DNA of 64,000 nucleotides from Microgenomates group bacterium GW2011_GWC1_46_15. GTDB taxonomy: Bacteria > Patescibacteriota > Microgenomatia > UBA1400 > UBA12028. The notes beneath the pieces are model-generated. The model saw nothing but the letters and a program-made list of their open reading frames with translations, ran no database searches and had not been told where the DNA came from. Positions 14,162 to 54,789 of this stretch are shown one piece after another; the stretch's first letter is position 1; each line of letters starts with the position of its first letter. The DNA lies in contig LCLX01000003.1 of the NCBI GenBank assembly GCA_001002285.1, forward strand, positions 2,560 to 66,559. The letters are read 5' to 3'. The position numbers and the translations under genes are program-made.

Positions 14162-14315
14162 AAAGATCGGGACTTAAAGGAAACTAAAGCCACACAATGA
14201 TGTATCGGCCTTTATGCCAGTTATACATTAAATTTCCACTGGCGCCCTATATGGGTAGATCGGGACTTAGCCAAGAGCCAATTATGCTTACCCAAGTGGT
14301 AAGTCCCGAACTTAG
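14162..14315 (+). repeat. composite palindromic intergenic repeat, copy 1 (part A GATCGGGACTTAAAGGAAACTAA + about 70-nt hairpin part B)
   Basis: Part B is CCCTATATGGGTAGATCGGGACTTAGCCAAGAGCCAATTATGCTTACCCAAGTGGTAAGTCCCGAACTT, containing an inverted TCGGGACTTA/TAAGTCCCGA 10-bp stem. The same two-part element recurs at 22792-22955, 40726-40892 (inverted) and 54613-54775 (inverted). Confidence 0.8.
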
Positions 14316-14334
14316 TTCGTGCTACACTAGTTTT

Positions 14335-18433: not shown

Positions 18434-19495
18434 ATGAAAAAAATCCTGCCCATCATCCTCCCGCTTTTGCTTGTCGTCTTTTTGATTGGATCGCGCCATT
18501 CATTTTCATTCGCCGCGGATAATACTCAACCGTCGCCAGAGATAAATCTGGCCGATTTTAACAGTGTTGTACTCATGGCTATTCCCCCACGCACCGAGAA
18601 TCTACACGCAAAACCTGGCGAAACAATCCAAACAACCGTGCGGCTCCGCAATGTTTCCCAGCAAACACAGCGCATCGTTACAGAAACTACCGATTACGTG
18701 ATCGGCGCAGATGGCAAAACGCCCGTGCCAATTACCCAACAAGAAGCCGCTCCGCTCCGGTGGAGTTTGGCATCGTGGATGACTGTTTCCCCCACACAAA
18801 CAACGCTCGCACCCAATCAAATCGGCCAGTTTGATGTTGTGATTCAAGTACCAAAAAACGCACTGCCCGGCGGGCATTACGCGGTCATTCTGCACACCGT
18901 TGCCAACGGACAAAACGGTGGGAAAAACGGACAACCCATCCAAACTCAGGGCACTTCCGCAGTCAGTCCCAAAGTTGGTACGCTTGTGTATGTAACAGTT
19001 GAAGGAGATATCCACGAAGAAGCGTTTATCCGTAGTTTCACCGCTCCAAGCTGGGTTGAGTTTGGACCGGTTCCTTTTACATACAAAGTGGAGAATCTCT
19101 CTGATGTTCATATCACACCACAAGCGTCAATCGTGGTAAAAAATCTATTTGGCGGAGTTGTAGACACGATTGCTGTTGAGCAACTCAACATTTTTCCGTA
19201 CTCCACGCGCGAGTTCACCACAACGTTGGATAAAATATGGGGGTTCGGACCGTACCGTGCATTCTTGACTGTTCCATATGGCACCAGTGGGAAAATGGTC
19301 CGCGCTTCACTCATGTTCTGGATGATTCCATATAAGCTGATTCTTGCCGCACTTGTTGTTCTGGCAGCTCTGCTTGCAATTGGAATCGCAGTACGCCGGC
19401 ACATTGAACACCGCAATAACCTCAGCACAAAACGCATTGAAGTGCTCGAAGAACGTATTAAGGAACTCGAAAACGAAAAACTCAGTGAAAAATAG
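18434..19495 (+). CDS. signal peptide + C-terminal TM-anchored surface protein, paralog B2
   Basis: 353 aa. Same architecture as B1: N-terminal beta-sandwich-like segment (...IPPRTENLHAKPGETIQTTVRLRNVSQQTQRIV...), C-terminal TM helix then a charged coiled tail. Confidence 0.55.
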   Translation: MKKILPIILPLLLVVFLIGSRHSFSFAADNTQPSPEINLADFNSVVLMAIPPRTENLHAKPGETIQTTVRLRNVSQQTQRIVTETTDYVIGADGKTPVPITQQEAAPLRWSLASWMTVSPTQTTLAPNQIGQFDVVIQVPKNALPGGHYAVILHTVANGQNGGKNGQPIQTQGTSAVSPKVGTLVYVTVEGDIHEEAFIRSFTAPSWVEFGPVPFTYKVENLSDVHITPQASIVVKNLFGGVVDTIAVEQLNIFPYSTREFTTTLDKIWGFGPYRAFLTVPYGTSGKMVRASLMFWMIPYKLILAALVVLAALLAIGIAVRRHIEHRNNLSTKRIEVLEERIKELENEKLSEK

Positions 19496-21601: not shown

Positions 21602-21933
21602 CAAGCCGTTTTACGTCGATTGTGCGCGGTCGTTCATTCATACCTGATATTCCTCAAGTACCCCGCCGTTATTGGTCAGTATTACCGTATTCACGCATTA
21701 TTATTGCATTGTTATTTAAATACTTAAACATATCAATGAATATCAAATGCCTCCCATTTCTCGCAGATTTTTCGTGAATATCATCAGCTGAGGCAAATTT
21801 TTTTCATACATTGTTTCGTGTTTCCGCAGTGTTCTCCGGGATTATTGAGGGTGGGAACGAATACAATCTTTATATATCAATCTATATCACAAAAAATATG
21901 TACGGGGTAGATACGAACAAAAAGCGTAACCGC

Positions 21934-22788
21934 CTACTTTTCTTCCCGAGTGGCCAGGCTTGCACTAAGCGCGATATAGGTTGACCAGCACTTTTCTGCC
22001 TGGAAATCATCCGGAAGAAGCTGCGCGGGAAGACCGGGATCGGACTTTACCATCTGGTAGATATGTGTTGAGAGTAAAGAAAACTGGTGTTTTATGCTAT
22101 CGTTCAACTCGTTTTGCCGTTCAACCCCATGTAGCAGACTTACTGCTCGAGTGCGGAGTTTCGCATACTGTTTGGATAAAAAGTCCATATTCCAGCTCTG
22201 CCGGACAAACTCTTTCTCATCTCCAAAAAGAAACCTGCGTGTTTCCAGCCCAATCAACAACTTTAACTTCTTCGCCTTGGCCAATGTCGAGATCATGCGA
22301 TCATCTATCGGAAATGGCGTTGCGTACACACCCCGAGTGAGGGACATAAATCCCCAAGTGCTCAATGTTCCCCGCAAAGCACGGTACTCCTGAGAAAGAA
22401 TTGTTTTCTTTTCCTTGTCTAGATAACCATGGCCAAACTCGCGTACCCCGCGAAAGATGAGTACTCGCCAGCGCTCATCCCATTTTTTCTTCAGAAAGAC
22501 TGAGCGCGGGAACTGCGCAAGGACTGCTTCACGGCCAACAGAGGTGAGGCGCATGTGCGTACCCCCGCCGCGCTGAACCGTCGAAATTAGGCTTTCGCGC
22601 TGGAGCGTGGCAACAGCGCCACGGAGTGTTGATTGTGGAACATTTGGCAAGCGCCAAGAAAGCTGGGCATAGGTAAGGTATGGAAATACTGTGGAAGAAA
22701 AAACATCTGCTTCCTCTTGTTTTTTCGCAGTCGTGGCAAGGAAAAAAAGAACAAGATCGCGGGTTGAAGACATAGGATGATCATACAC
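21934..22788 (-). CDS. winged-helix transcriptional regulator-like protein (PaaX-like?), hypothetical
   Basis: 284 aa. The N-terminal wHTH-like segment and C-terminal helical domain resemble PaaX-family regulators. Weak assignment by pattern only. Confidence 0.3.
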   Translation of the reverse strand: MYDHPMSSTRDLVLFFLATTAKKQEEADVFSSTVFPYLTYAQLSWRLPNVPQSTLRGAVATLQRESLISTVQRGGGTHMRLTSVGREAVLAQFPRSVFLKKKWDERWRVLIFRGVREFGHGYLDKEKKTILSQEYRALRGTLSTWGFMSLTRGVYATPFPIDDRMISTLAKAKKLKLLIGLETRRFLFGDEKEFVRQSWNMDFLSKQYAKLRTRAVSLLHGVERQNELNDSIKHQFSLLSTHIYQMVKSDPGLPAQLLPDDFQAEKCWSTYIALSASLATREEK

Positions 22789-22791
22789 GAG

Positions 22792-22955
22792 AAAGATCGG
22801 GACTTAAAGGAAACTAAGGGTTGGGATTGATATACAAATCCCTTTTATACATTTTGGCAAGTTATACACACGATTTAGCGAACCCCCTATATGGGTAGAT
22901 CGGGACTTAGCCAAGAGCCGATTATGCTTACTCAAGTGACGAGTCCCGAACTTGT
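22792..22955 (+). repeat. composite palindromic intergenic repeat, copy 2
   Basis: GATCGGGACTTAAAGGAAACTAAGG ... CCCTATATGGGTAGATCGGGACTTAGCCAAGAGCCGATTATGCTTACTCAAGTGACGAGTCCCGAACTT. About 90% identical to copy 1 in parts A and B. Directly abuts the start codon of the minus-strand gene at 22788. Confidence 0.8.
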
Positions 22956-23273
22956 TATTCCCGCATCTTTTCACACAGAAACGATTCGGGTATTTCGTGG
23001 AGATACTCAACACATACTGCTTTTTCTTCGCACATTGCATAAGACATGTGGATATTTCTCAAGTGATTTTTATCTGTTTATAAATAAGGAAATGAAGAAC
23101 AAGAAAAACAAACAATACACAATGTGTTCAAAAAAGGTTGAAAACTCGAGATATCGCCCGCACTGCCTCCCTAGTTTTGATACATTCTGATACTTATATA
23201 TATCAGTGAAAAAAGAATTGTGAAATATAGATACCACAATCATCCGGATACTATATATGCCTGGAAATTTCCC

Positions 23274-23307
23274 CTTGACTGCGGTATCTGGAACTCCATA
23301 CAGTGAC
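23274..23307 (+). promoter_or_regulatory. candidate sigma70 promoter for the giant gene (TTGACT, 18 nt spacer, TACAGT)
   Basis: Sequence match only. An RBS-like GAGGAAAA lies 8-15 nt upstream of the ATG at 23391. Confidence 0.25.
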
Positions 23308-23390
23308 AACTATGACACACCAAAAAATCAACAGTATGACAAAAACACGCGCGTCTAATGTTATCTAATGCTTGAGGAAAATTAAAAACA

Positions 23391-26300
23391 ATGAGTCCTG
23401 CCGACATCAACTACTCACGACCTCAATTTTCCGTTCCGGAGCACGTTATCGCGCGTATTGAAGCGGTGCTTAAACAGTTTGCAGAATTTTTATTTGCTCA
23501 ACAGCTTTCAAAAAAATCAGTGACAAATTATCTTTCAGATGTTCGCGTGTTTTTAGAACACCGTTTGGCAAACAATCAGGCGTTTCAGGAACGCGCGGCA
23601 GAAAAAGACCTCAAGCAGTGGCTTTCTTCCCTTGAGCAGGATATTACAGCCTACAGGGCAGAACTCCTCGAGGAAGCCACCCCTCTCTCGACAATTAATC
23701 GGTACATGGCCTCATTCCGACAATTTGGCGCATTCCTTACTGCTGTCCACCAGATCAGCGCCTTCGGTCATTCTTCTGGCGAGTATCTTAAAAACATTTC
23801 ATTTTCCCCCGAGTCACACCTACATTCCTTGAGTGACCGACTGCTTCAGCAGTTCAAGTTGGCGCTCACCCATCGTGGTTGCTCAGACTCTACAATCAAG
23901 AATTATTGTGCTGATATGCACCAATACATGCAATGGCTAGGAGAAAAACCGGTTTTCCCAGATCAGATCAAACGGGGTGTTGCGGAATATTTGGGATTTT
24001 TGCGGAAAAAAGGTGCGTCGCGCGCAACAAAAGCACGTGCTCTCACCAGTTTAAAGCAGTTTTATCGATGGGCAAACGAGTCCCAGTACATCAAAAAGAA
24101 TCCTTTTGCATCAAAAATGGCAGAGGTTGGGACTTTCGTTAAAACTGCGTTTACTCCACTTGCCTTTTTTGAGAGGTTCCGAAAAGCGCCTCAGCAAACA
24201 CCTCAAGAAAAAGTTTCAGAAGAATCCTCTCGAAGACTCTCTCCAATCACCCAAGCCTACGACCGGTACACCCGTTGGCCGGTGAGTTCATATCTTCATC
24301 TGGCCATCTTAATCCTTTTTGTTACGTTGCTTGGTGTGTTCGGCTATCAACAGCTCTTTTTAAACGCCGAGAAAAAACTTGCGTTCCCCACCGCCCTCAC
24401 CCGCCCCAACCGCACTCTGTCTTTCCAGGGTCGTTTAACAGACAGCACAGGCCAAACACCAATCACAACTGCAACAAACTTTACATTCAAGCTTTTTGAC
24501 GCACTTACCGTTGGAAATCAGCTCTGGAACTCGGGAACCTGTAGCATCACGCCGGATCAGGACGGCGTATTTTCGACATTGCTCGGAAGCAGCTGTGGTG
24601 CGGAAATCGACAGTGGCGTGTTCAGCGAAAACCCCAACGTATACCTCGAGGTTACGGTGGTCGCGGAGACACTCACCCCAAGGCAACAAATCGCGACGGT
24701 TGGCTACGCATTAAATGCAGAAACACTTCAAGGCTACCCTGCCTCTGCCAGCGCAGTAGAAAACACGGTGCTCATCATGAACAACTCTGGTCAAGTGCTC
24801 TTGGGGAACGCTTCACCTGTGCTCCGTTCAAACTCCGGCACGTTTACAGTCCAGGGCAACGCGCTTACGCTCTCCACAAACACGGGAACGGCTGGCAACA
24901 TTTCGATTGCGCCCGATGGAGTGGGCCAGCTCAATCTCCTCGGTGGAACCACAACGCAGGATTTTATCAGTGTAACGAACGCAAACCTCACAACGGGAAA
25001 ACTGATAAACGGCACGGTCGGAAATAACAATACTGGATACAAATTTTTATCATTTACCGGGGGGTCTGTCCCATCTGAAAAGTTCTATGTGGGGGCACTT
25101 GGAAACGTGTATGCAGGCAACTCAATTTTTGCTCCGGTGGCTACAATCAGTGCAACAAATACCAGCGCTACACCGCTCATAATCAACGGAACTGGAGGAC
25201 AAATTTTCTCAATTGCGAATAGTGGAAACATGACTGGAGCAGGAACGCTTACAGGACTTACGGGATTAACATCGAGCGGCACAATCACATTCTCGGGGTT
25301 AAACACAGCGGGCGCAGTAGTGTACACGAACGGCTCGGGCGTACTGGGAGATACAGCACAAGGTGTGAGTGGGTACGTTCTCACCTCTGGTGGAGCGGGC
25401 ACGCCAACATGGCAAGATCCAGCGACACTTACCGGGGCAAACTATTGGCAGTTGAACAGCCAAGTGTTGGCACCAGGAAATACAACACTTGATCTTGCAG
25501 TTGGCGGAAACTCAACAGCGGCCGCACTGTTCCGCGTGTCCGGCACGCCAACAACTTCAGGCAATGGCGCGGTGTTGTCGTCTACCACACTCACAACCGG
25601 AAACCTCCTCAGTCTTTCATCAACCGCAACATCACTCACTTCCGGTAAGTTACTTTCACTCGACTGGTCGCCGGGAAGCGCGATCACAGCAACCGGTGAC
25701 TTGTTTAACATCAACATCGGCTCAAATGGAACCGTGGGAAATTTGCTGAACATCACGGATAACGGGTCGTCTCTTTTTTCCGTTTCAGAAACCGCGGTGA
25801 CGAGTAATTTACCAACGTCGTTTACCTCATCGGGTGATGTTTTAATCGCGTATGATCTGATTTTTACTAATCCAACCGCATCGTACATAAAATCTTCGGC
25901 ACCACTGTATTTGCAGGCTGGTGAAATGTTTAACTCCAGCGATCTCACGCTCCGCACGTTCAACAAAGGCAACGTGATTATAGACTCCGAGGTACTTGTT
26001 GCAAACTACGCCGCCACTGTTGCATCCCAGTTGGTTGTTGGAACAACAACTGCACCCGCGAACATTGGCGGGCTGTATCTCACAAACGCCACAACATATG
26101 GAAAAGCGTTGGCAATATTGAACCAAACCGAGTCGCAGGATATTTTTACCGCGTCGGCATCTTCGGTAGCAAAGTTCACAATTGCAAACAACGGCAACCT
26201 CACAGCAACAGGGACAATCACCGGACTGACCGGCATTACTTCAAGCGGAACGATTACGTTTAGCGGGCTTAACACCGCGGGCGCAGTGGCATACACAAAC

Positions 26301-29300
26301 GGCTCGGGTGTGCTGGGGGTGACGGCACAGGGCGTAAGCGGATATTTGCTGACCTCTGCCGGAGCAAGCACACCAACATGGACTGATCCTGTAACGGTTG
26401 GTACCAACTACTGGCAGTTAAACAACAAGGTGTTGGCACCGGGCAACACGACGTATGATTTGGCAATTGGCGGAAACTCGACGGCGGCGGCAAAGTTCCA
26501 GGTGTTTGGCGAAAGTGGGAATGCGACATCCACCGGTACGCTCACGTTTAACGGGGCAGCATTGGCTAACAATGTCATTGCGGCACGGCGCAATGTTGGA
26601 CTGCAGATTGGCGACACGTATACCGGAAACATTATTATTGATTCAAACAATTGGTTGAAACTCAATACAACAAACAACCAAGCGATTACCACAGGTACGG
26701 GTCTTATCACGTTGGCCGGCAATGTAGACGCAATCAACGGGTTGGACGTGACCACCGCGAACTTAACCGTGGGCGGTGCAAACTTTAGCGTTGCACCAGG
26801 AACCGGAAACATTACGACTGCCGGCGACCTGGCGCTCAACGGCGGCGATCTCACCTCTATCGCGACCACGTTTAACTTTGACATCGGCAACACTGGAGTG
26901 CTGAACTTCCGCGATGGGACAAACACGCTGTTTTCCATTACCGACGGTGGAACACAAGGCAACGCCAGTTCTTCGGGAAACCTTACTCTTGGCGGACAGT
27001 TCCAACTGGGACGATTCGCAACCGCACCTACGGGACTTGGAACAGGCGCGCTCTACTACGACACCACATCCAGTAACATCTTCTTTTACAACGGAAGTAC
27101 TTGGACAGCGGTAGGTTCGGGAAGTGGCGCAAGCTGGTGGAATCAGGCTACCGGCGCCCTGTATCCACTCAACTCCACCGTTGATATGTTGATTGGCGGA
27201 CAGGCAACAACAAGCGCAAAGTTTGCGTTCATCAACGTTAACAGTGGAAATCCAACGGCAAGTATTTCCGGGAACCTCGCGATTGCCGCTCCCGCAGGGG
27301 CAGATCCGGCAACAACATACGATGTTTTAAACGGCGGGACATATAACCTTCGCACATCCGTTGGTGGAGACTTGGGATTAACATCCAGATTGTTTATTAC
27401 AAACGGCGGAAATGTCGGAATCGGGACTGTCAATCCAACGTCATTTAAACTTCAAGTGGCTGGCGATACCGGTCCAAATGCGGATGCATCGTATGATCTT
27501 GGTTCAACTGCGCTCCAGTGGAAAAATATCTATCTCTCTGGTTCATTATGTTTCGACATGGCGGACTGCGCGACAAGTTGGGCAACCGTTGGAACAAACT
27601 ATTGGCAGTTGGACAATCTTGTACTTTCACCGGGGAATAGTACGCTCGATATCGCGGTGGGCGGGAGTGCGACAAGTTCGGCAAAGTTCCAGGTGTTTGG
27701 GGTTAGTGGAAACGCAACAACAACAGGAACGCTTACGTTTAATGGTGCAACGCTCGCCAATAATGTGATCGCGGCACGACGCAATGTGGGATTACAAATT
27801 GGGGGAGGAACAGAAACAGGAGACATTCTTCTTGACTCGAACACATTCCTCCGGTTAAACACAATCAATAACCAAGCGATCACCACGGGAACCGGGCAGA
27901 TGACCCTCGCCGGCAATGTGGACGCAATCAACGGGTTGGACGTGACCACCGCGAACTTAACCGTAGGCGGCGCAAACTTCAGTGTTGCACCGGCAACCGG
28001 CAACATTATTACTGCTGGTGATCTTGCACTCAACGGCGGCGATCTCACCTCTATCGCGACCACGTTTAATTTTGATATTGGGAATACCGGGGTGCTCAAC
28101 TTCCGCGATGGGACAAATACGCTTTTTGCGATCAACGATTACGGCACGCAAGGGTACGCAACATCGTCTGGTGACCTCGGCCTTGGCGGCCAGTTTCAAC
28201 TTGGGCGATTCTTTACAAACCCCACCACGATCGGCAAAGGAAGCCTTGTATACAACACCGCAACCGACTCTGTGTATTACTCTGATGGTTCAACATGGAA
28301 CCAATTTGCGAGTTACGCGGCCGCAACGGTGTGGACCGATGGTGGAACATACCTCTACCCAACAAACCGTGAGTCCGCGCGTATCTATGATGCTGGCGGC
28401 ACCGATTACATTGACATCGCACACGACGGCACAAATGTAGTTATTACAACCGCAAATACCACAAAAATCACGATTGACGCTGCGGTAGATCTGGCAAGTA
28501 CACTCAATGTTGGCGGCAACACGATTACATCTCCGGGAGATCTTTCGCTCAATGCAAGCGGAACAAAAGTCATTGTGTCGCCGGACTTACAGGTGAACGG
28601 TGGTGATATTCTCGGTGCCAGTGGTGAAACACGCATCACGCTTGTGGATGCGCTCAATCTCACAAACTTTAGCGGGAGCGTAGACATTAACGGAAGCTAC
28701 GCGGGTAACGACGGCTTTTTGACCGCCAACCGCACCGCAACGATCAGTTCGCTTATTGCAACCGACACCCCCCTTACGCTCCGCGACAACAACGCGATGA
28801 ATCTGCTCACCGTTGCAAACAGCGGGCTTATTACCGTGCGCACCGCAACGATTAGTTCACAGGCGGTGAATAGTCTGGATACGGTGGCATTCACGCTGAA
28901 TGCTGCGAACTCGCTCACAACCCAGGGAGCAAAACTTCTCTCTGTTCAAAACGCGACCATTGAGAAGTTCTATGTGGACAAAGACGGAAACATCTACGCG
29001 GCCGGAACAATTTTGGCGGGCAACGGCATGGGCATGCTCATGCAGAATAAAAGCGGTGGCACAGTGGCACAAAAAGCGATTGTGATCGTGGACACGTCAA
29101 ACAACTCCGCGTTCACGACTACCACAACGCCGTACAGCAAAGGGATGTACGGCATTATTACCGGCGTTGGGCTTGGAACAATAAACGATGCAAATAGTGA
29201 TGGAAACTGTGACGCCAATGATATCTGTATGGTGGCCGTGGGCGGCGAGGTGAATGTAACAATCAAAAATACGACAACGGTTGCCAAAGGCGACTATGTG

Positions 29301-32300
29301 TACACGAGCGACACCGCGGGGTCTGCGGTTACGTCCGCAAAATTATTTGACGGCATGCTGGGCGTGGTCACGAACACTTCTACCTCCGGCTCCGGCTACG
29401 TCAAGTTCATCTTTAAACCACAAACGCAGGTTACGGCCGCGGCCAGTATTGACAAGGGCAGCAAGTACAACGAGTACAAGCTCTATGCCGACGACTACAC
29501 CGGTGTGGGCGAAGGCACCAGTCCCAACGACAACCTCAATACCAAAGGCATGTACTTTGACAATCTGCTGGACACCACCAAAACGGACAGCGCCAACACC
29601 ACGGTTTCTGCTCCCACGCAAGTGAGTGCCACCACCGGCAATCCCACCCCCGCCGCCCCATTCCGCGCCGGCCTCATCGGCGGCCAAACCATGTCCGCGG
29701 CTACCACCGACAACGCCGGGAACACGTATCTCGGAAGCTCCACCGTCAACAAGACCGTGTACTACGACCGCACGCGCGACTCCTCCGCCCAAGTCCAAGT
29801 CGAACTCGGCATCGATCCCAACTGGTACAACGGCGTCACCCTGGCCGTCGCCACCACCAGCGCGTCATTCTCACAAAACTCCACGATCTGGACACCCAAC
29901 CCCAACCTCTCTAGCACCTACAACGGCTCGCTTCTCCAGGCGAGCGGAACGTACGCGAGCAACGCCAAAACTATCTACGTCACCATCAAGTCTCCCACCA
30001 CGTTTGATTGGACAAACTATAACGGAAATTCAGCTACGGGAGTAACCGTCACCCCAGGGACTAGTCAGTCCCTGGCTGGAACGGGCGTCTCGGTCAAATT
30101 TACGGATGCCAAATACAACACCGGAGATGTCTTCAAAATCGCCTCCTGGTTCGTGGAACCCTCCGGCTCAACCAGAGGCACCAAACAGCAGTTCCCCGAA
30201 CGAGCGATCATCGTAGCCAGCAATACAAATGTTGACATTATCGATGCAGACACGCAGAAACTTTGGATGGATTTTAGTAGCGGCGGGACATGGCTGACGT
30301 CAAATAATTTACTCGCCGCATCTGGCTCTAACGTCGTTTCATCTGTTTCTGTGTTGAACGGAAAAATGCATGCAGGATTAAACGCGAATAACCAGAGATT
30401 GGTAAAAATCGATTTTTCCACTGATAGCGGTGGATCATATCAGACTACAGGATGGCGTGATTACCTGGGAAATATAGCCGAGCGTAACGGTGGAATGGGA
30501 GTAAGCGGATTAAATGGAACTGTTAGTATAGTAAATAACAACGTCAACGACGTAGCGGCCAACGTCATCCCCAACGCTCCCACCCAAACCACGACCGTCA
30601 GCGGCTGGGGATATTTTAGCTTGAGTTCTGCCAGCGAAACCGTCAATCTGCCCTATAAATTCAACACTAATCCGAACATCGTCATCACCTCCGCCGGTCA
30701 CTCCGGCACCACCACGCCGGTCAATCTGGCCAGCTGTACCACCGCCAGCGCCAAAACTGTCGTCACCGATAACACCACGACAACCAGTTTTACCGCCCGC
30801 GAAAGCGCTTTGGACGCGACCAACTATCAGTGCTATTCCTGGACCGCCACCGGCCAGGTCAGCCCGAGACAATTTGTCGGTGCCGCCACCGACGCAGGAG
30901 TGACCGTCGTCAACGAAACCGACGCCACGGCCTACTCCTATTCCGATGCCACCAATGACGCCTATCAAAATGTAGCCCTTACGTCCAAAGGTACGCTCTA
31001 CGGCCTGAACTCGACGGAAAATCAGCTGGAAAAATGGACTTCCATACCCGCCGATACTGCCGCCAGAACGAATGGCACGCCGGACAACGTCTGGGCAAAT
31101 GCCGGCAACGACTCCTTCACCAAGCTTCTCATCCACGCGGATGGCACAAACGGCGCAACCACGTTTACTGACAGTTCGCCGAATGCCCGCACGCTGACAA
31201 CAAACGCAAACGCACAAATATCTACTGCTCAAAAGAAATTCGGTCCCTCTTCCATACTTTTAGACGGCACCGGCGATTACGTATCCGCCGCCGACAGCGA
31301 AGACTGGAATATTGGCAATGGAGATTTCACTATTGATCTTTGGGTTAACTTTTCAGTTTTACAAAATACTATGTTCGTCGAACAAACAACGGACGTAAAT
31401 AACTATCTTCAGCTTTACTGGACTACGTCAAATATCATCTACATGGCCATAAGAAATGCAGGAGCAGACAACATTAGCTTCAACGGAAGCTGGACACCGT
31501 CAACAGGCACATGGTACCACGTTGCGTTTGTCCGATATGGTACTCGGGCGAACATCTACATTAATGGGATATCCGTCGCCACCAAAACCAACATTAGTGC
31601 CGGAGCGGCAAACTACACCTCTGCGTTGGCCGTCGGCTGCTCTCCGTTCAACGGTTGTGGATATGATCTTAATGGCTACATGGATGAATTCCGTTTTACC
31701 AAAGGGCATGCCCGCTGGACCGATAACTTTACCGTCCCCACGAACCCGTACGCGAAAAATGTTGCGATTGCCCCGCTCCCGCCAACCATCCAATCTTCTC
31801 CCAGCAATCTTTCTGTAACCGAAGGAACCTCTGCTGTAGACGGAACCAGCGATACGCTGTACATCGGAACCAATCAGGGGGTCGCTGTCATTCAGGATAA
31901 ATCCACCGTCAGCAGCCGCAACGATAACGGCGACGAACAAAGCGGCTCCGCCAAATACTACACCAAAGACTATGTTTCTGAAGAACTTATGGGTAACGTC
32001 GTCGGCATGTGGCCGCTCACTTCCGGTTACGGGTCGGGGCTGTCCGACGCATCATCAAATCAAAGCGGAAGCGCGTTATTGAACGGGACCACCGCACCTA
32101 CGTACACTGCCTCCGGCGTCCGCGGACAGGCTGCCACGCTGGGCGCCTCTGCCGCAACGGCAACAACGAGCGCAGGACTCGTAAACCAAAACATCAACAC
32201 CATCAAAACCGTTTCCGCCTGGATTTACCCCACCACGCTCACCACTACCAACGGCACGCGGGAGATGGCGGTCTCCGCCGACGCCAACTCCGCCTCGGTT

Positions 32301-35300
32301 GTTTCCTGGGGCATCGGCACCAAAGGCGACGGCACCAACGCCAACCTCACCTGCTTCGCTGGCAACACCGGCCCGACCGCGACAGACTTGGGCACCGGCA
32401 TCCCGGCCGTGGTCAACACCTGGTATCACGTCGTTTTGACCTCCGATGGGTCAAGCGCGCTCAAGTGTTTTGTCAATGGGACACTTTATAACTCAACGAC
32501 TCTTTCCGGCACAGCCCAGACCCCCACCCGTTTCCAAATCGGCGCCACCCAGGCCACGACGGCGTTTAATGCGCTACGGGGCCGCGTGGACGAGGTGATG
32601 GTCACCGCGACACAACTTTCCGCTTCCCAAGTTAAGCGTATCTACGAGGTCGGCTACCGGGCGCTCCAGTCCCACGCGACCACCCTCGGCGGCGGAGGCG
32701 CGGATGCCAACCAGCAGTTGGGCTACATTTCGACAGGTACTAATACAGTTGGCGCGGTTGCTCCGGATTACAATAACCAGTTCATGTACGTGGGCCTCAA
32801 CTCGACGACGCTGGGCGGGCTGTCTAAGATTGACTTAAATAGTGATACGAATATCAAAACATACAATTCTTCTGCCAACGTCCCCACCGGCGGGCCGCTC
32901 CTTATTGACGAGGACACCACGTCCCTGGCCGTCGGTTATACGTTGGAAGCGGTCGGCTCGGCGGCCTCCGGCGTCAAGACCATGGGGGTGGACAATAACG
33001 CCACGGCCACGTCCGGCAACTTCATCAGCAAAACCTACACCACCAGCGAGTCCTTCAGCCAGGCCTATATCTGGTCGCAATATGTGACGGACTCCTCCGA
33101 TGCGTCCAATACGGTCACCGTGTGGGCTTCCAACGACGCTGGATCAAACTATTACCAATGCAGTAACACCAATACCAACACTGGCCAGTCGCCCACCGAG
33201 TACGAGTACTTCTGCCAATTCAATACGCCCGGCTCGTCGCTCAAACTCAAGTACGTGTTCGCCCGCGGCTCCACCAAAACCAACACCTACCTCACCCGCT
33301 ACGGCGTGGCCTGGATCGGCAGCGACGTCGTGGGCGGCGCCCCCGGCGGGAATGGCCTGTACACGAACAATGGAACCGCGGTCGCCAACGGCAGTTACCT
33401 GGAAGTCGCGCATAACCAAAACACAAGTGATCTTTTGACCGAAGGCTGGATTTACGACGGAGCCAAGTGGATCGAGATAGATGACCAAGCCAAGACCGAC
33501 CACAACACCCAGGATCCTACTCTCCTCTCCTGGTACAAGATGGAGGAAGCCTCCGGGGACTTGGACAACGCCCAAGGCACGGCTGCCCGGGACTTGATTG
33601 ACTTGAACGGCCCCACCTACCAGGCCGCCGGCCGCGTCAACAAAGCCATTACCCTGGACGGCACCAACGACTACTTCTGCACCGGCTCGGGCACCACCTG
33701 CGCCTCACCGTCAAACTTTACTACAGACACGAATCGTACGCTCAATACCAATCTTATTTCGTACTGGAAACTTGATGAAACTTCCGGCAGTCGCACGGAT
33801 TCGGTCGGAAGTAATACGCTCACTGACAACAACACCGTCACCAGCAATCCCGGAAAAGTCGGCAACGCCGGGCAGTTCATCGCAGCCAACACTGAGTATT
33901 TGAGCATCACAGACAATGCGGCTTTGAGTACGGGGGATATTGATTTCACTTTTTCAGCATGGGTGTATATGGATTCGCTTTCTACAGACACGCAAGTTCT
34001 TGGCAAGTGGTCTGCATCAGCAGGACAGTACGAGTATCTTTTGGAGCGCGGCAGTGCAAACAAATTCCGGTTTTATGTAAGCAGTGATGGCTCTACCTAT
34101 ACTTCCGTTCAAGCTGCTACATTTGGCGCAATGTCAGCAAATACGTGGTATTTTGTGGTTGCCTATCATGATAGCGTCAACAATACCATCGGCATTAGTG
34201 TCAATAATGGCGCATTTGATACCGTTGCCCACACAACAGGCGTAAGAGATGGTACGGCACAGTTTGACATTGGTGCGTTGGCTGCGGGTTCATTTCCATT
34301 CAACGGTCGCATTGACGAAGTTGGTTTTTGGAAAAAAGTGCTTTCCACCCAAGAAATAACTGATCTATATAACTCCGGCAACGGGAATAGATTCCAAGGC
34401 ATGAACTTTATCGCTTCCGACTCCTTCACCCTGGGCGGCTGGTTCAAGCACGCCACCATCGCCACCAATCCGGATTACATGGTGGCAAAGACGGATGGTG
34501 GAACAGCAGATGACACAAATACAAAACTTCTTCTCCACGCAGATGGTGCAGATACCAGTACTACTTTTACCGATGATTCCTCGTCCCCTCACACCATGAC
34601 CGCCGTCGGCAACGCCCAAATAGATACCGCCCAAAGCAAATTCGGCGGAGCGAGTGGATTATTTGATGGAACCGGAGACTATGTTACAAGCCCAGATCAT
34701 GCGGATTGGGATTTTGCGTCAGGGGATTTTACGATTGATTTCCGGATAAGGTTTAACGTTGTTAATACGGCATATCTTGTTACCCATGGGGCAAGTATGG
34801 CGGGAGGGGATGGGTGGTTTGTTAGATATAACGCGAATAATCTTGAGTTTGCGTATAACAGCACAACGATAACAAAGGCTTGGACGCCTTCAAGCGCTAC
34901 GTGGTACCACGTTGCTGTTGTACGAAGCGGAACAAATTTGTATATGTTCATTGACGGTACGCAAATTGGAACAACAGGATCAATTTCAGGTACTATTACA
35001 GATAATGCAAATCTCTTAGTAGTTGGCGAGCGAGATTCGGGTCCCGGTGCTCCCTTAAATGGCTGGTTAGATGAAGTTCGTATTAGTAAGGGGAGCGCCC
35101 GTTGGACAGCAAACTTCACTTCGCCAACATTATCCTATGGAACCAGTGGCCCCGGCTACAAACTCCTCATGGAATCCGATGGTGATCTGACATTTGGCAT
35201 TGACGATGACAGCATAAGCTTCCCCGAAGACTCTGCCACCTCGACCGTGGCCACGTATGACGACAATGCCTGGCACCATGTGGCCGCGGTCAAGAATGGG

Positions 35301-38300
35301 ACAACTAATATCAAGCTGTATGTGGACGGTGAGGAGGTAGCCAGTGATACGAGTATTTCTGCCACCGAGACGCTGGCTAATGCCGGAGCTTTCTATTTAG
35401 GTATCGACGGTGACGCCACCAGCAACCCCTGGGCCGGGCAACTGGATGAGACGTTTGTCTATAGTCGGGCGTTGACTGCCGGAGAGATCGGGGAACTGTA
35501 CCGGAGCAGCAAACGCTTTGCCATCGAGCAAGCCGATGCCAATACGGTCCGGCTCTACAACTACTCCGGCGCGGCGCAGAATTTGCGACTGGACGTCATC
35601 ACCGGCGGACTGGGCCGGAACGCCGGCACGGTGTCGCTCCACCCGGATGCCGCAGACGTGGATGCGCAAGCCAACGGCAATGCCATTTGGGTGAACAAGA
35701 CCGGCGACTGGGGCAATCTCATCAAGCTCCAGGGCGACGGATTGGACAAGTTCGGGGTGGACTGGCAAGGCCACGCTACGGTAGCCGGAACACTTACGAT
35801 CGGGTCTTCATCCTTAAAGCTCTCGGATTTCGGAAGCTATTCTACTATTCAATCTGCCGGAAACCTTGCGCTCCAGGCATCCTCGGGCAATGTGGGCATC
35901 GGCACATTAACTCCCAGTAAAAACTTGGATGTGGCCGGCGCCATCGCGTTCCGCAACAAATTCAACTACCAACAGACCATTACCCTCACCAACGGCGGCG
36001 GTACGCTTACAAATTACGATGTTCTGGTTCAGGTGGATACAGCCTCCCTCATTTCCGCCGGTAAAATGCAGTCGGACTGCGATGACATCCGCTTCAGCGA
36101 CAGCGACTCGCAAACGCCGCTCACCTACTGGATCGAGCAGGGCTGTAACACCGCTGATACACAGATTTGGGCCCGCGTCCCTTCGATTCCCAACGGCTCT
36201 AAAGACATCTATATGGTCTACGGAAATAGCAGTGTATCTTCTGCCAGCCAATCCTGGAGTGGAAATTTTATCTCCATGTTCAACGCCTCTGTCCCAGCCG
36301 GTTGGACGCAAGTTTCCGCCCTGGACAATAAATTCCCCCGCGGCAACACTAGCTATGGCGGTACGGAAGGGGCGGATACTCATACGGTCGCCATCAGCGG
36401 CACAAGTTCCCAATCCGGTGGAAAGGTAACTTGGAACAGTTGTGCAAATTCCGTTGCCTACCAATATCACACTCATACATACAGTGCCACCAGTGGTTCT
36501 GCCAACAATATTCCTCCTTATGTTAATATCGTCTTCGGCAGCAAAAATGCACCGGGACTGATTCCCACCAGCGGTATCGTTTTCTACAACAGCTCGCTGG
36601 TGTCCGGCTGGAGCAACGTCACTGTCCTAAATACCAATTTCACCCGGGGTAGTACTACGTATGGAGGTACTGGTGGCACCTCTGCTGCTCACAACCACAC
36701 CATACCCGCCATGACCACGAGTGGACCCAGTGCTACTGTTTCTACCTGCCAGTACGACATCGGAGCTACCAGTGGCGGTCAAACCCACTCAACCAGTTCC
36801 ACTACCACAGCCAACAATGCTGATACATCCCTACCTCCATACGAAGACTTTATTCCAGCTACCCCCGACCAAGCACGTGCGTATGAACAGGGCGCACTCG
36901 TCGCTTTTGATGCTACTCCTCCGTTGGGTTGGACCAGAAAAAGCAGCTTAGACAGTGGCTTCCCCCGCGGAAACAGTACCGCCGGTGGTACCGGCGGCGG
37001 CGCGACCCACACTCATACATATTCTATTGTCACTAGCGCAGCTACTAATGATACCTCGGGTGAAAATGCTGTTGGCACCGGCACCTCCAACGATGGCCAC
37101 GCCCACACGCTCAGCGGTTCACCATCCGGCACTAATGTCCCCGCCTACATGGATGTCCTTTACTACACCAAAAACACCATGTCTGTTACTATCGGCTATA
37201 GCAGCGAACAGGTCGGTTCCAGCAGCCCCATCCAAATTCTCTATGACGATACCACGACCAATCTGGGCGTGGGTCAGATTACACCTCTCTGGAAGCTCCA
37301 CGTAACCGATACCCAAGCTGCGACTGCTTCTGCGATGATTGAAAACCTTTCTGGTGTAGGATCCAACAACCCCACCGCCCTGGTCCTGCGTCTGGGAAGC
37401 GACGCCACCAACCCTGATACCGGCGACCGGTTTATCAACTTCATGAGGGGCGACTCGACGATCATCGGCAAAATTCAAGGCAATGGGTCAGGAGGAATCT
37501 CATATACTACCGCAGGCGTGGACTTTGCCGAGTATTTCCGCAAAGAAGATCCCCATGAGGAGCTTCTTCCTGGTGACGTGCTCTGCCAGGGGCCTAGCGG
37601 CGGGGTGACCAGGTGTACTGCTTCCGCTACCGGACCTATGGGCGTTATCTCAAATAAAGCAGGTTTTGTGGGCGGATCAGACCATGAAGGTGATCCCGGC
37701 TACGTCATTGTCGGATTGATCGGACAGCTTCCGGTCAAAATTGACCCGGCCTCCTCAGCAATTGCCGTGGGCGACTTCCTCACTTCTTCAACGAAACCCG
37801 GCCTGGCCATGAAAGCCACCCGCGCGGGGTACGTCGTCGCCAAAGCGCTGGAGGCATGGCAACAGTGTCCTGGAGCGACCGCAGGGAGCGATATCTCACA
37901 AAATTCAGGGGATTCTATCGGCCCTTCGGGCCTCCAGAATGACACTTGTGATAAACCCACGATTGAGGCCTTTGTCCATCTGGGCTACTTTGCCGGCGAG
38001 CTAACCGCGGATGGGTTTTTGAATCCAGACTATGTCGCGCAAGGTGCCGTATCAGTTTCTGCACAACAAGTGCTTGCCGATGCTATCGCCTCTCCAAGCG
38101 GATCGATCGCAGACATCGGCCAAACCGCAAAAGACCAGTTCGGGGGCTTGAGCTCTGCAAACCTTGATCTCTTCAAAGCACTGTGGGCAAACGTCCAACT
38201 CCTCACATCCAAACTTATCAAGACAGAAAAACTTGAGTCCCCGCTTGCCGAGATTCAACACCTTGACGCAAACATCATTCATACCGCAACGCTTTCTGCT

Positions 38301-39524
38301 CAGTTCATCCGTTCCAACGCGACTGACTCCGCGCTCACCCTCCGCTTGGACCCCGACATCTTCACGATTCTTGGAACACAGCCAGACACCGCAACCCCAT
38401 CCACACTCATGAGTATTGATGCACGCGGTAACGCGACCTTCACTGGCCAGCTCACTACCGACACATTTACCGCGCAATCCGCACGTGTTCAAACACTCGA
38501 AGCAGTGAACGCCTCACTTGGTGACGCAACCATCGCTGGTACACTGCGCGCGGGAAATATTGAGGCCAACACGATCTCCGGCCTTGACGACCGCGTCTCG
38601 CTTGCCGTCCGCACCGCCGTGGATACTGCAACCGCCAGCGGCTACTTCGCATCAGCCTCACTCCCGCAGGACCTCAGCACACTCATCGCTACGCTCTTGC
38701 CCGCCAATAACCTGGATATTGAAACCGTCTTGACTCAGCTCAATACCCAAACCAACAAAAACATTACACTTGCTGAAGTCTTGGCGCCAAAGGCGATTAT
38801 TGCTTCAGACTTCCTCTCAGTCCAAGGTTTAGCGGACTTCTCCTACGCTCAGTTCGCAACCGGCCTCAGTGTACACAACTCCCTCGCACTCACCGGAAAC
38901 AGCATCAGTATCGATCCACTCCAAAATGATACTTTATATATCCAACCATCAGGAAATGGAACACTCAACTTCCTCGCCGGAGTGCTTACTATAGATAGTA
39001 TCGGTGGGGTAAGTGTAAACGGTGATCTGTATGTTTCTGGATCAATCTATACAAATACAATCAGAACTACATCACTTTCACTTGGCGCTTCTCCATTCGC
39101 AACAGATTCGGCGACCCCAAACACCCTTTCCGGCTTTGGTAAACTACTCGCACTCTATGACGAAACCGGAAATGTTGTTGGCTCGGTAGACGCATCCGGT
39201 TCTGCAACGTTTCATCAGCTCACGACAGGCCAGCTTGTTATTGCGTCACCGTTTACCACAACCAGCTCTGGCCAACTCGCCGGGATATCAACAAGCAACG
39301 CCAGCGCAGGCACCGCAGTTTTGCCAGCCGGACAAACTGAACTCATCATTGCCAACACCACGCTTGACGACCGCACACTTGTCTACTTGACTCCGCAGTC
39401 CGATACGCGTAACCAAGTGTTGTACGTGAAAACTAAAATCTCCGGCGAAGGATTTACCGTTGCCGTACTCCAACCTGTACCGCAGGACATCACATTTACG
39501 TACTGGTTGATTAAAACACAGTAA
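23391..39524 (+). CDS. giant (5377 aa) membrane-anchored surface fibre protein
   Basis: Single uninterrupted 16.1 kb ORF. N-terminus: tandem phage-integrase N-terminal SAM-like (core-binding) domains, predicted cytoplasmic. One TM helix (aa about 298-322). Then a huge extracellular region: Gly/Thr/Asn-rich beta repeats, LamG-like x5 (LLIHADG...DGTGDYV...W-x-FTIDxW...GxxDExR), a DUF2341-like segment, phage tail-collar-like x3, and a Peptidase_G2-like GVDFAEYF autochaperone motif. Domain calls are by motif recognition only. Confidence 0.8.
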   Translation: MSPADINYSRPQFSVPEHVIARIEAVLKQFAEFLFAQQLSKKSVTNYLSDVRVFLEHRLANNQAFQERAAEKDLKQWLSSLEQDITAYRAELLEEATPLSTINRYMASFRQFGAFLTAVHQISAFGHSSGEYLKNISFSPESHLHSLSDRLLQQFKLALTHRGCSDSTIKNYCADMHQYMQWLGEKPVFPDQIKRGVAEYLGFLRKKGASRATKARALTSLKQFYRWANESQYIKKNPFASKMAEVGTFVKTAFTPLAFFERFRKAPQQTPQEKVSEESSRRLSPITQAYDRYTRWPVSSYLHLAILILFVTLLGVFGYQQLFLNAEKKLAFPTALTRPNRTLSFQGRLTDSTGQTPITTATNFTFKLFDALTVGNQLWNSGTCSITPDQDGVFSTLLGSSCGAEIDSGVFSENPNVYLEVTVVAETLTPRQQIATVGYALNAETLQGYPASASAVENTVLIMNNSGQVLLGNASPVLRSNSGTFTVQGNALTLSTNTGTAGNISIAPDGVGQLNLLGGTTTQDFISVTNANLTTGKLINGTVGNNNTGYKFLSFTGGSVPSEKFYVGALGNVYAGNSIFAPVATISATNTSATPLIINGTGGQIFSIANSGNMTGAGTLTGLTGLTSSGTITFSGLNTAGAVVYTNGSGVLGDTAQGVSGYVLTSGGAGTPTWQDPATLTGANYWQLNSQVLAPGNTTLDLAVGGNSTAAALFRVSGTPTTSGNGAVLSSTTLTTGNLLSLSSTATSLTSGKLLSLDWSPGSAITATGDLFNINIGSNGTVGNLLNITDNGSSLFSVSETAVTSNLPTSFTSSGDVLIAYDLIFTNPTASYIKSSAPLYLQAGEMFNSSDLTLRTFNKGNVIIDSEVLVANYAATVASQLVVGTTTAPANIGGLYLTNATTYGKALAILNQTESQDIFTASASSVAKFTIANNGNLTATGTITGLTGITSSGTITFSGLNTAGAVAYTNGSGVLGVTAQGVSGYLLTSAGASTPTWTDPVTVGTNYWQLNNKVLAPGNTTYDLAIGGNSTAAAKFQVFGESGNATSTGTLTFNGAALANNVIAARRNVGLQIGDTYTGNIIIDSNNWLKLNTTNNQAITTGTGLITLAGNVDAINGLDVTTANLTVGGANFSVAPGTGNITTAGDLALNGGDLTSIATTFNFDIGNTGVLNFRDGTNTLFSITDGGTQGNASSSGNLTLGGQFQLGRFATAPTGLGTGALYYDTTSSNIFFYNGSTWTAVGSGSGASWWNQATGALYPLNSTVDMLIGGQATTSAKFAFINVNSGNPTASISGNLAIAAPAGADPATTYDVLNGGTYNLRTSVGGDLGLTSRLFITNGGNVGIGTVNPTSFKLQVAGDTGPNADASYDLGSTALQWKNIYLSGSLCFDMADCATSWATVGTNYWQLDNLVLSPGNSTLDIAVGGSATSSAKFQVFGVSGNATTTGTLTFNGATLANNVIAARRNVGLQIGGGTETGDILLDSNTFLRLNTINNQAITTGTGQMTLAGNVDAINGLDVTTANLTVGGANFSVAPATGNIITAGDLALNGGDLTSIATTFNFDIGNTGVLNFRDGTNTLFAINDYGTQGYATSSGDLGLGGQFQLGRFFTNPTTIGKGSLVYNTATDSVYYSDGSTWNQFASYAAATVWTDGGTYLYPTNRESARIYDAGGTDYIDIAHDGTNVVITTANTTKITIDAAVDLASTLNVGGNTITSPGDLSLNASGTKVIVSPDLQVNGGDILGASGETRITLVDALNLTNFSGSVDINGSYAGNDGFLTANRTATISSLIATDTPLTLRDNNAMNLLTVANSGLITVRTATISSQAVNSLDTVAFTLNAANSLTTQGAKLLSVQNATIEKFYVDKDGNIYAAGTILAGNGMGMLMQNKSGGTVAQKAIVIVDTSNNSAFTTTTTPYSKGMYGIITGVGLGTINDANSDGNCDANDICMVAVGGEVNVTIKNTTTVAKGDYVYTSDTAGSAVTSAKLFDGMLGVVTNTSTSGSGYVKFIFKPQTQVTAAASIDKGSKYNEYKLYADDYTGVGEGTSPNDNLNTKGMYFDNLLDTTKTDSANTTVSAPTQVSATTGNPTPAAPFRAGLIGGQTMSAATTDNAGNTYLGSSTVNKTVYYDRTRDSSAQVQVELGIDPNWYNGVTLAVATTSASFSQNSTIWTPNPNLSSTYNGSLLQASGTYASNAKTIYVTIKSPTTFDWTNYNGNSATGVTVTPGTSQSLAGTGVSVKFTDAKYNTGDVFKIASWFVEPSGSTRGTKQQFPERAIIVASNTNVDIIDADTQKLWMDFSSGGTWLTSNNLLAASGSNVVSSVSVLNGKMHAGLNANNQRLVKIDFSTDSGGSYQTTGWRDYLGNIAERNGGMGVSGLNGTVSIVNNNVNDVAANVIPNAPTQTTTVSGWGYFSLSSASETVNLPYKFNTNPNIVITSAGHSGTTTPVNLASCTTASAKTVVTDNTTTTSFTARESALDATNYQCYSWTATGQVSPRQFVGAATDAGVTVVNETDATAYSYSDATNDAYQNVALTSKGTLYGLNSTENQLEKWTSIPADTAARTNGTPDNVWANAGNDSFTKLLIHADGTNGATTFTDSSPNARTLTTNANAQISTAQKKFGPSSILLDGTGDYVSAADSEDWNIGNGDFTIDLWVNFSVLQNTMFVEQTTDVNNYLQLYWTTSNIIYMAIRNAGADNISFNGSWTPSTGTWYHVAFVRYGTRANIYINGISVATKTNISAGAANYTSALAVGCSPFNGCGYDLNGYMDEFRFTKGHARWTDNFTVPTNPYAKNVAIAPLPPTIQSSPSNLSVTEGTSAVDGTSDTLYIGTNQGVAVIQDKSTVSSRNDNGDEQSGSAKYYTKDYVSEELMGNVVGMWPLTSGYGSGLSDASSNQSGSALLNGTTAPTYTASGVRGQAATLGASAATATTSAGLVNQNINTIKTVSAWIYPTTLTTTNGTREMAVSADANSASVVSWGIGTKGDGTNANLTCFAGNTGPTATDLGTGIPAVVNTWYHVVLTSDGSSALKCFVNGTLYNSTTLSGTAQTPTRFQIGATQATTAFNALRGRVDEVMVTATQLSASQVKRIYEVGYRALQSHATTLGGGGADANQQLGYISTGTNTVGAVAPDYNNQFMYVGLNSTTLGGLSKIDLNSDTNIKTYNSSANVPTGGPLLIDEDTTSLAVGYTLEAVGSAASGVKTMGVDNNATATSGNFISKTYTTSESFSQAYIWSQYVTDSSDASNTVTVWASNDAGSNYYQCSNTNTNTGQSPTEYEYFCQFNTPGSSLKLKYVFARGSTKTNTYLTRYGVAWIGSDVVGGAPGGNGLYTNNGTAVANGSYLEVAHNQNTSDLLTEGWIYDGAKWIEIDDQAKTDHNTQDPTLLSWYKMEEASGDLDNAQGTAARDLIDLNGPTYQAAGRVNKAITLDGTNDYFCTGSGTTCASPSNFTTDTNRTLNTNLISYWKLDETSGSRTDSVGSNTLTDNNTVTSNPGKVGNAGQFIAANTEYLSITDNAALSTGDIDFTFSAWVYMDSLSTDTQVLGKWSASAGQYEYLLERGSANKFRFYVSSDGSTYTSVQAATFGAMSANTWYFVVAYHDSVNNTIGISVNNGAFDTVAHTTGVRDGTAQFDIGALAAGSFPFNGRIDEVGFWKKVLSTQEITDLYNSGNGNRFQGMNFIASDSFTLGGWFKHATIATNPDYMVAKTDGGTADDTNTKLLLHADGADTSTTFTDDSSSPHTMTAVGNAQIDTAQSKFGGASGLFDGTGDYVTSPDHADWDFASGDFTIDFRIRFNVVNTAYLVTHGASMAGGDGWFVRYNANNLEFAYNSTTITKAWTPSSATWYHVAVVRSGTNLYMFIDGTQIGTTGSISGTITDNANLLVVGERDSGPGAPLNGWLDEVRISKGSARWTANFTSPTLSYGTSGPGYKLLMESDGDLTFGIDDDSISFPEDSATSTVATYDDNAWHHVAAVKNGTTNIKLYVDGEEVASDTSISATETLANAGAFYLGIDGDATSNPWAGQLDETFVYSRALTAGEIGELYRSSKRFAIEQADANTVRLYNYSGAAQNLRLDVITGGLGRNAGTVSLHPDAADVDAQANGNAIWVNKTGDWGNLIKLQGDGLDKFGVDWQGHATVAGTLTIGSSSLKLSDFGSYSTIQSAGNLALQASSGNVGIGTLTPSKNLDVAGAIAFRNKFNYQQTITLTNGGGTLTNYDVLVQVDTASLISAGKMQSDCDDIRFSDSDSQTPLTYWIEQGCNTADTQIWARVPSIPNGSKDIYMVYGNSSVSSASQSWSGNFISMFNASVPAGWTQVSALDNKFPRGNTSYGGTEGADTHTVAISGTSSQSGGKVTWNSCANSVAYQYHTHTYSATSGSANNIPPYVNIVFGSKNAPGLIPTSGIVFYNSSLVSGWSNVTVLNTNFTRGSTTYGGTGGTSAAHNHTIPAMTTSGPSATVSTCQYDIGATSGGQTHSTSSTTTANNADTSLPPYEDFIPATPDQARAYEQGALVAFDATPPLGWTRKSSLDSGFPRGNSTAGGTGGGATHTHTYSIVTSAATNDTSGENAVGTGTSNDGHAHTLSGSPSGTNVPAYMDVLYYTKNTMSVTIGYSSEQVGSSSPIQILYDDTTTNLGVGQITPLWKLHVTDTQAATASAMIENLSGVGSNNPTALVLRLGSDATNPDTGDRFINFMRGDSTIIGKIQGNGSGGISYTTAGVDFAEYFRKEDPHEELLPGDVLCQGPSGGVTRCTASATGPMGVISNKAGFVGGSDHEGDPGYVIVGLIGQLPVKIDPASSAIAVGDFLTSSTKPGLAMKATRAGYVVAKALEAWQQCPGATAGSDISQNSGDSIGPSGLQNDTCDKPTIEAFVHLGYFAGELTADGFLNPDYVAQGAVSVSAQQVLADAIASPSGSIADIGQTAKDQFGGLSSANLDLFKALWANVQLLTSKLIKTEKLESPLAEIQHLDANIIHTATLSAQFIRSNATDSALTLRLDPDIFTILGTQPDTATPSTLMSIDARGNATFTGQLTTDTFTAQSARVQTLEAVNASLGDATIAGTLRAGNIEANTISGLDDRVSLAVRTAVDTATASGYFASASLPQDLSTLIATLLPANNLDIETVLTQLNTQTNKNITLAEVLAPKAIIASDFLSVQGLADFSYAQFATGLSVHNSLALTGNSISIDPLQNDTLYIQPSGNGTLNFLAGVLTIDSIGGVSVNGDLYVSGSIYTNTIRTTSLSLGASPFATDSATPNTLSGFGKLLALYDETGNVVGSVDASGSATFHQLTTGQLVIASPFTTTSSGQLAGISTSNASAGTAVLPAGQTELIIANTTLDDRTLVYLTPQSDTRNQVLYVKTKISGEGFTVAVLQPVPQDITFTYWLIKTQ

Positions 39525-54775: not shown

Positions 54776-54789
54776 CAAATACAAAAATC

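Follow-up and report, generated by a model that had tools for sequence, protein, structure and literature searches.

Two in-frame repeat units within a giant gene of a Microgenomates bacterium: an old partial duplication that probably evolves in slow concert

A stretch of 64,000 nucleotides (nt) from contig LCLX01000003.1 of the uncultured groundwater organism Microgenomates group bacterium GW2011_GWC1_46_15, referred to here as the window, carries a giant open reading frame (ORF) in which long segments, designated repeats A and B, recur in frame. The state of these repeats is, in all probability, the outcome of slow concerted evolution acting on an old in-frame partial duplication, with occasional gene conversion between the copies. 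According to this explanation, a fibre-like module of a giant, putatively membrane-anchored surface protein would have been partly duplicated in frame before the nearest sampled lineage branched off, and the likeness of the copies would have been upheld mainly by purifying selection on the protein. Homologous recombination, presumably of the RecA type, would now and then copy one unit into the other by non-reciprocal gene conversion, leaving tracts of ~55 nt and, probably, ~41 nt in the window lineage and one of ~630 nt in a sister lineage. A homogenised repeat such as that of the sister lineage would provide a good substrate for the loss or gain of units via unequal recombination and would also act as a trap for short-read assemblers; the repeats of the window lineage would be too diverged for frequent crossover, their two-unit arrangement remaining stable.

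The evidence that carries the conversion step comes from a three-way comparison of the two B copies of the window with the orthologous copy of the sister lineage. Most informative sites on the flanks of the central tract are of the orthology type, copy 2 agreeing with the orthologue and copy 1 differing. Between 26717 and 26770, however, 14 sites are shared by copy 1 and copy 2 and differ from the orthologue, against a single orthology-type site (26726). Copy 2 differs from the orthologue at 14 of the 54 positions in this tract versus 65 of 665 elsewhere (Fisher p = 0.001), and the run of 14 identical codons between the B copies has a permutation p of 0.004. The amino acids of the tract are alike in the orthologue and both copies, apart from one I/T change, and the 14 differing sites are mostly silent. 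Protein constraint cannot explain the identity of the tract, because the amino acids agree while the silent sites differ in the orthologue, and the simplest reading is that a short stretch of about 55 nt was copied from copy 1 to copy 2 after the lineages split. The 41-nt exact stretch farther downstream, with three sites at which the two copies agree against the orthologue and no orthology-type site, shows a weaker form of the same pattern and is probably a second conversion tract. When a conversion signal was sought in the A pair by comparison with the sister-lineage contig L005, none was seen, orthology-type sites outnumbering concerted-type sites by 33 to 6.

The age of the B duplication can be placed relative to the split of the two lineages. 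By the Nei-Gojobori method, the proportions of synonymous (pS) and nonsynonymous (pN) differences between copy 1 and copy 2 are 0.67 and 0.21 overall, with pS falling to 0.19 at 26724-26783; outside the patch of about 55 nt the silent sites are near saturation (pS ~0.7). Orthologous segments of the window and the sister lineage give a pS of 0.34-0.55 and a pN of 0.02-0.07, and since both values are exceeded in the comparison of copy with copy, the duplication is older than the split. Mismatches in the best-matching 300 nt of the B pair fall at codon position 3 in 42 of 52 cases, an excess which points to purifying selection on the sense frame.

The anatomy of the repeats was established by self-comparison of the gene with blastn and, at the protein level, by comparing chunks of the giant protein with each other. 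Positions 26393-27017 and 27584-28211 align at 75.7% identity over 634 nt (E 4e-125), the protein-level repeat, codon-aligned over 783 nt, has 69% nucleotide identity, and the best 300 nt (26664-26963) reach 83%; exact runs are limited to 44, 41, 22 and 20 nt. The corresponding protein segments, aa (amino acids) 1002-1262 and 1399-1660, are ~72-82% identical. The first-pass annotation of this DNA, made from the letters alone, had described long near-identical repeats. The repeats are real, but their near-identity was overstated, high DNA identity between units not being found in this genome. Its finer observations were borne out: the 40-46 bp identical stretches that it reported correspond to a 44-mer, at 26727 and 27921, and to the 41-nt run at 26835-26875, which contains the 38-mer that it quoted (26838 and 28032). 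The 44-mer and the 38-mer each occur exactly twice, 1194 nt apart, and the core for which it had given about 90% identity over about 200 bp measures 88.2% over 186 nt when 26715-26900 is set against the register shifted by 1194 nt.

The B period of 1191 or 1194 nt, equal to 397 or 398 codons, keeps the reading frame, but homology is confined to its first 0.63 kb as DNA, or 0.78 kb as protein. The ~135 aa that follow copy 1, a spacer module termed U2, are without counterpart after copy 2, and the full tandem unit of ~1.19 kb that had been proposed does not exist as such. In its own right, U2 is a module found widely in Patescibacteria ('...INVNSGNPTASISGNL...NVGIGT...'). Tandem Repeats Finder (TRF) reported nothing at a period of ~1.19 kb, a result that is uninformative since the longest period it covers is 500. 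The partial copy that had been placed upstream is likewise present as the A pair, with 25206-25539 matching 26175-26505 at 71.9% over 334 nt and ~80% at the amino acid level, and aa 606-734 matching aa 929-1063 in the protein comparison; here too the near-identity of the DNA did not hold, the longest exact match being 11 nt. The A offset is 969 nt, or 323 codons. All the offsets (1191, 1194 and 969) are divisible by 3 and nothing interrupts the ORF, so that the units are homologous in frame. Inside the repeat copies, the minus strand has antisense ORFs of 176-184 aa in codon-aligned register at 26408-26962, 27599-28135 and 25442-25972, two being found in both B copies; they are probably shadow ORFs arising from amino-acid composition.

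In the sister lineage, represented by contigs L005, L028, L029, L030, L031 and L032 with ~86-90% nucleotide identity to the window, the same units have been homogenised over a much longer distance. L028 holds both units with a period of 1194, exactly identical over 591 bp and with a single mismatch in 630 bp. As far as about window position 26990 both resemble copy 2, and farther on each reverts to its own orthologue, which clearly reads as a gene-conversion tract of ~630 bp, copy 2 being the donor and copy 1 the recipient. Two units in the order A2, unit 1, U2, unit 2 are confirmed by L032, which stems from a separate sample. Contigs L029 and L030, assembled with MEGAHIT at k141, end exactly 141 nt, that is one k-mer, inside the repeat, and L031, likewise a k141 contig, ends 400 nt inside it, where the copies of its strain start to differ. 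Trouble with assembly, as raised by the first-pass annotation, is thus real in this lineage.

L005, which derives from JGI metagenome Ga0209542, is shorter than L028 by exactly one period and aligns to the window with a single gap of 1191 nt. The junction lies at the start of the repeat, at 'TWTDP|ATVGTNYWQL'; the contig is in frame and without Ns, the switch falls inside the 591-bp exact repeat, and the copy-2 allele is present at the sole site that separates the two copies. Downstream it departs from L028 by 1.8%, which marks it as a different strain. Collapse during assembly is the more likely account of L005 rather than a real deletion, because the repeat exceeds short-read length and because L028 and L032 show two units in the same lineage. 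A reading of L005 as a natural deletion variant with one unit is weakened by L028, L032 and L029-L031, which reveal two near-identical units and contig breaks.

Contigs from the same population as the window were collected from JGI, ENA, NCBI and Logan by exact match of a neighbouring protein. The seven assemblies obtained (L017, L018, L019, L020, L021, L026 and L027) match the window at 99.6-100% identity and all have two units; because all seven carry it, the two-unit structure of the window is not an artefact. None has a single-nucleotide polymorphism (SNP) within the repeats relative to the window, and none is a length variant at the consensus level. As regards copy-number polymorphism between strains, 0 of these 7 vary and L005 has one unit fewer, possibly through collapse. 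Scans of genome contigs and of metagenome contigs with the two window copies gave no match near-identical to the window. Assembly trouble of the kind that had been foreseen occurs in this population as well: L020 stops within copy 2, at window position 28276, and in L026 a run of 20 Ns (L026 16490-16509) replaces window 27086-27287, just 3' of copy 1. Both irregularities are technical. The N-gaps in L026 and L027 (21770-21771) split the annotation of the gene, into 1231 and 4078 aa and into 2670 and 2693 aa, respectively. L017 differs from the window at nine positions in 22 kb, all within 18658-18739 (82 nt, in an unannotated ORF of 353 aa at 18434-19495), a cluster that suggests either sequence imported by local recombination or a mixture of strains.

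Repeats of this kind recur in the gene family. Homologues of the module are nearly all Patescibacteria proteins, mostly partial and on contigs of 1-3 kb; the search with the unit returned neither the window protein nor that of L005 and is uninformative on copy number. Other Patescibacteria loci have the same N-terminal domain, transmembrane helix and conserved S2 region, followed by module types that vary in number and order. In every lineage that allows a clean comparison, the N-B modules within a genome are mutual nearest relatives. Two loci contain in-frame intragenic repeats far cleaner than those of the window, one 100% identical over ~665 bp (L011, 4619-5283 vs 5732-6396, period 1113) and the other 99.6% over 228 bp (L004, 7801-8028 vs 10669-10896, period 2868), and two more carry repeats, also in frame, of 86% over ~900 bp (L014) and 85% over ~580 bp (L003). 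Recurrent intragenic duplication or conversion is typical of the family, since modules cluster within genomes and other members have repeats of their own.

Of the explanations that compete with slow concerted evolution, the one that deserves most attention, unlikely as it is, holds that the repeats are an active device for length or antigenic variation, in which frequent unequal recombination maintains coexisting alleles that differ by modules of ~397 aa and L005 is a genuine one-unit allele. The absence from L005 of exactly one period, in frame, free of Ns and with the switch within the 591-bp exact repeat, speaks for it; L005 also belongs to a strain different from that of L028, the sister-lineage repeat is an excellent substrate for recombination, and the number and order of modules vary among members of the family. 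However, the nine resolved contigs (seven from the window population together with L028 and L032) all have two units, so that L005 is the sole contig to which this explanation can appeal, and an exact repeat of 591 bp is expected to collapse or break a short-read assembly, three contigs indeed breaking at this place. The repeats of the window share no exact stretch longer than 44 nt. The mechanism of length or antigenic variation that the first-pass annotation had thought plausible found no support in the population check, and a rapid switch is unsupported because the seven same-population assemblies are uniform. Its broader suggestion that recombination could add or remove modules in frame fared better, in that the copies exchange sequence, as the tracts of ~55 and ~630 nt indicate, and L005 lacks one in-frame period, but at 76% identity, with an exact match of at most 44 nt, the window repeats are a poor substrate.

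Far less probable is an origin of the 44- and 41-nt identities without any recombination, through protein conservation together with codon preference or through nucleotide constraint from an embedded RNA or an antisense ORF. Although the peptide 'AGNVDAINGLDVTTANLTVGGANFSVAP' is highly conserved, even in the unrelated match P0008, codon-aligned antisense ORFs are present in both copies and the codon run has a permutation p of only 0.004, the retention of the amino acids by the orthologue in spite of its mostly silent differences, where the paralogues are identical, argues against such constraint, as does the unambiguous 630-bp homogenisation of the same units in the sister lineage. Diversity-generating retroelements (DGRs) are common in Candidate Phyla Radiation (CPR) genomes and target large surface proteins. 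That the B copies form the template and variable repeats of such an element, or belong to a silent-cassette system, is nonetheless improbable in the extreme: the mismatches are not adenine-specific (A in 9/52 for copy 1 and 6/52 for copy 2), most of them occupy the third place of a codon, and both copies are in frame within one ORF, with no further copies elsewhere in the 64-kb window. A DGR target was ruled out, as all twelve substitution types occur and codon position 3 predominates to the extent given above. Silent cassettes like pilE/pilS were rejected after tblastn of all module segments against the window had found copies solely within the giant ORF, and simple-sequence phase variation was rejected as well, TRF showing only marginal tracts of 2-3 copies with units of 7-13 nt in 20000-34000.

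Several points weigh against slow concerted evolution with occasional conversion, or at least against parts of it. The direction of the small tract in the window is read from one outgroup, whose own copy 1 has been overwritten, and with pS near saturation the ages are ordinal only. An assembler could in principle exaggerate the perfect identity of the L028 units; at least 141 identical nt are required independently of L028, because L029 and L030 end at k-mer length. Consensus assemblies leave room for length variants at low frequency in the window population, and several of the 'independent' assemblies may come from overlapping sets of Rifle groundwater reads. Finally, the fold of the module and its location at the surface are only putative. 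The AlphaFold2 model of one unit (aa 1002-1399, from an alignment of 17 rows) is mostly coil, with a pLDDT (predicted local distance difference test) of 63 and a pTM (predicted template modelling score) of 0.34. A sequence search of the PDB returned nothing significant (E 0.12), and PHROGs gave no match for either the repeat region or the C-terminus.

The protein that carries the repeats has fibre-like repeat modules and a conserved C-terminal region. In the protein as a whole, Pfam detects Phage_int_SAM twice at the N-terminus, Laminin_G_3 several times, DUF2341 and, weakly, a Peptidase_G2-like match. A single hydrophobic helix at ~aa 300-322 follows the N-terminal domain, which suggests that the protein is membrane-anchored and that over 5000 of its residues lie outside the cell; the helix, taken together with Laminin_G_3 and DUF2341, points to exposure at the cell surface and, presumably, to a role as surface fibre or adhesin. 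The N-terminal part (aa 1-330, 23391-24400), with two integrase-type SAM-like (core-binding) domains and then the transmembrane helix, has a layout that is kept in the related giant genes of Patescibacteria (L001-L015). The presence of a DNA-binding-type domain at the cytoplasmic side of a surface fibre is puzzling. Coordinates of the gene and its repeats are collected in the table.

Table. Features of the giant gene and its repeats, in window coordinates.
Feature	Position	Strand	Remarks
Giant ORF	23391..39524	+	16,134 nt, 5377 aa; same product called in independent assemblies
Repeat A copy 1	25206..25539	+	aa 606-716; A segment plus 'NYWQL' N motif
Repeat A copy 2	26175..26505	+	aa 929-1039; shares its 3' end with the start of repeat B copy 1
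Repeat B copy 1	26393..27176	+	aa 1002-1262; DNA similarity to 27017, then protein-only (~45% aa) to 27176
Spacer module U2	27177..27583	+	aa 1263-1398; completes the 1191-nt period
Repeat B copy 2	27584..28370	+	aa 1399-1660; DNA similarity to 28211; orthologous to the sister-lineage copy, 88-97%
Putative conversion tract, copy-1 side	26717..26770	+	includes exact 44-mer 26727-26770
Putative conversion tract, copy-2 side, probable recipient	27911..27964	+	includes exact 44-mer 27921-27964
Second exact stretch, 41 nt	26835..26875	+	partner 28029-28069
1191-nt period (397 codons) missing from sister contig L005	26390..27580	+	single gap in global alignment

The neighbours of the giant gene include genes for leucyl-tRNA synthetase (LeuRS) and ComEC/ComEA, and the window also contains tRNAs and an rRNA operon with insertions; these genes identify the stretch as part of a cellular genome. 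A PaaX-like protein of 284 aa is encoded nearby. The genes for ComEC (Competence domain) and a ComEA-like protein (SLBB/HHH_3) are found on the minus strand at 9532-11582, 12 kb upstream of the giant gene, and agree with a capacity of the organism for DNA uptake. Insertions and introns in rRNA operons are usual in CPR genomes. In the operon at 54788-60883, the match to the 23S rRNA covers 3716 nt compared with a model of 2925 nt, which indicates insertions, and a separate group I intron match, at 55614-55898, falls in the interval that separates the 5S gene from the 23S gene. A dispersed repeat of ~73 nt occurs at 14245-14317 (+), at 22885-22956 (+), just 5' of the giant gene, and at 54645-54679 (-), adjoining the 5S rRNA; its 35-nt core has three occurrences at no more than one mismatch, the chance expectation being 0. 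The repeat can fold as a hairpin (z ~ -2.5, minus strand) and has no Rfam match at the gathering threshold.

Repeat arrays are familiar from surface proteins such as streptococcal alpha C/Rib and staphylococcal SasG/Aap. Intragenic repeat arrays of cell-surface proteins are also known from yeast FLO1/FLO11 and Candida ALS (review PMC3899988). The giant gene resembles these microbial arrays in its in-frame modules, in the unequal crossover and gene conversion envisaged between units, with gain and loss that keep the frame, and in the near-identity of the sister-lineage units as DNA. It differs from them in that the units number no more than two, a long non-homologous spacer accompanying each, in the great length of the units (~0.8 kb homologous, in a period of 1.19 kb) and their identity of 76% in the window, and in that no copy-number variant was seen among the seven assemblies of the window population. 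Spider silk spidroins provide an example of concerted evolution of repeats within giant structural genes (PMC3563967): repeats of one gene resemble each other more closely than they resemble orthologous repeats of other species, a pattern put down to intragenic conversion or unequal crossover, as proposed here, and seen across the present gene family too. In contrast to the spidroins, the present case concerns a putatively membrane-anchored bacterial protein with heterogeneous modules (LamG, DUF2341), in which homogenisation is confined to patches and differs from lineage to lineage. West-Roberts et al. (bioRxiv 10.1101/2023.11.21.568195) described giant bacterial genes with internal repeats and 'unresolvable assembly fragmentation' in metagenomes. 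The gene studied here likewise probably encodes an adhesive extracellular giant protein, and contigs end one k-mer into its repeat, but it comes from Patescibacteria and not from Omnitrophota, has other domain content and encodes 5.4 kaa (thousand amino acids) as opposed to 30 kaa or more.

For work on such genes, the practical warning is that module counts from short-read metagenome-assembled genomes are not to be taken as biology. Contigs that end in a module or are without it may be products of assembly, as may be the case for L005, L029, L030, L031, the N-gap of L026 and many of the 1-3 kb fragments in databases. A more far-reaching idea, to be regarded as doubtful, is that in episymbiotic CPR bacteria bearing competence genes the N-B modules constitute an evolvability region driven by recombination, with L005 a genuine one-unit allele and with fibre length or host specificity tuned in this way. 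If this were true, repeated homogenisation would build long perfect repeats like those of the sister lineage, L011 and L004, and these would in turn give rise to in-frame gains, losses and swaps of modules in natural populations. The behaviour of the repeats is what would be expected biologically and opens no new question; its value lies in the assembly caveat and in a clean example of what appears to be intragenic gene conversion in a giant, probably surface-exposed protein of an uncultivated CPR bacterium, with events that can be dated relative to a lineage split.

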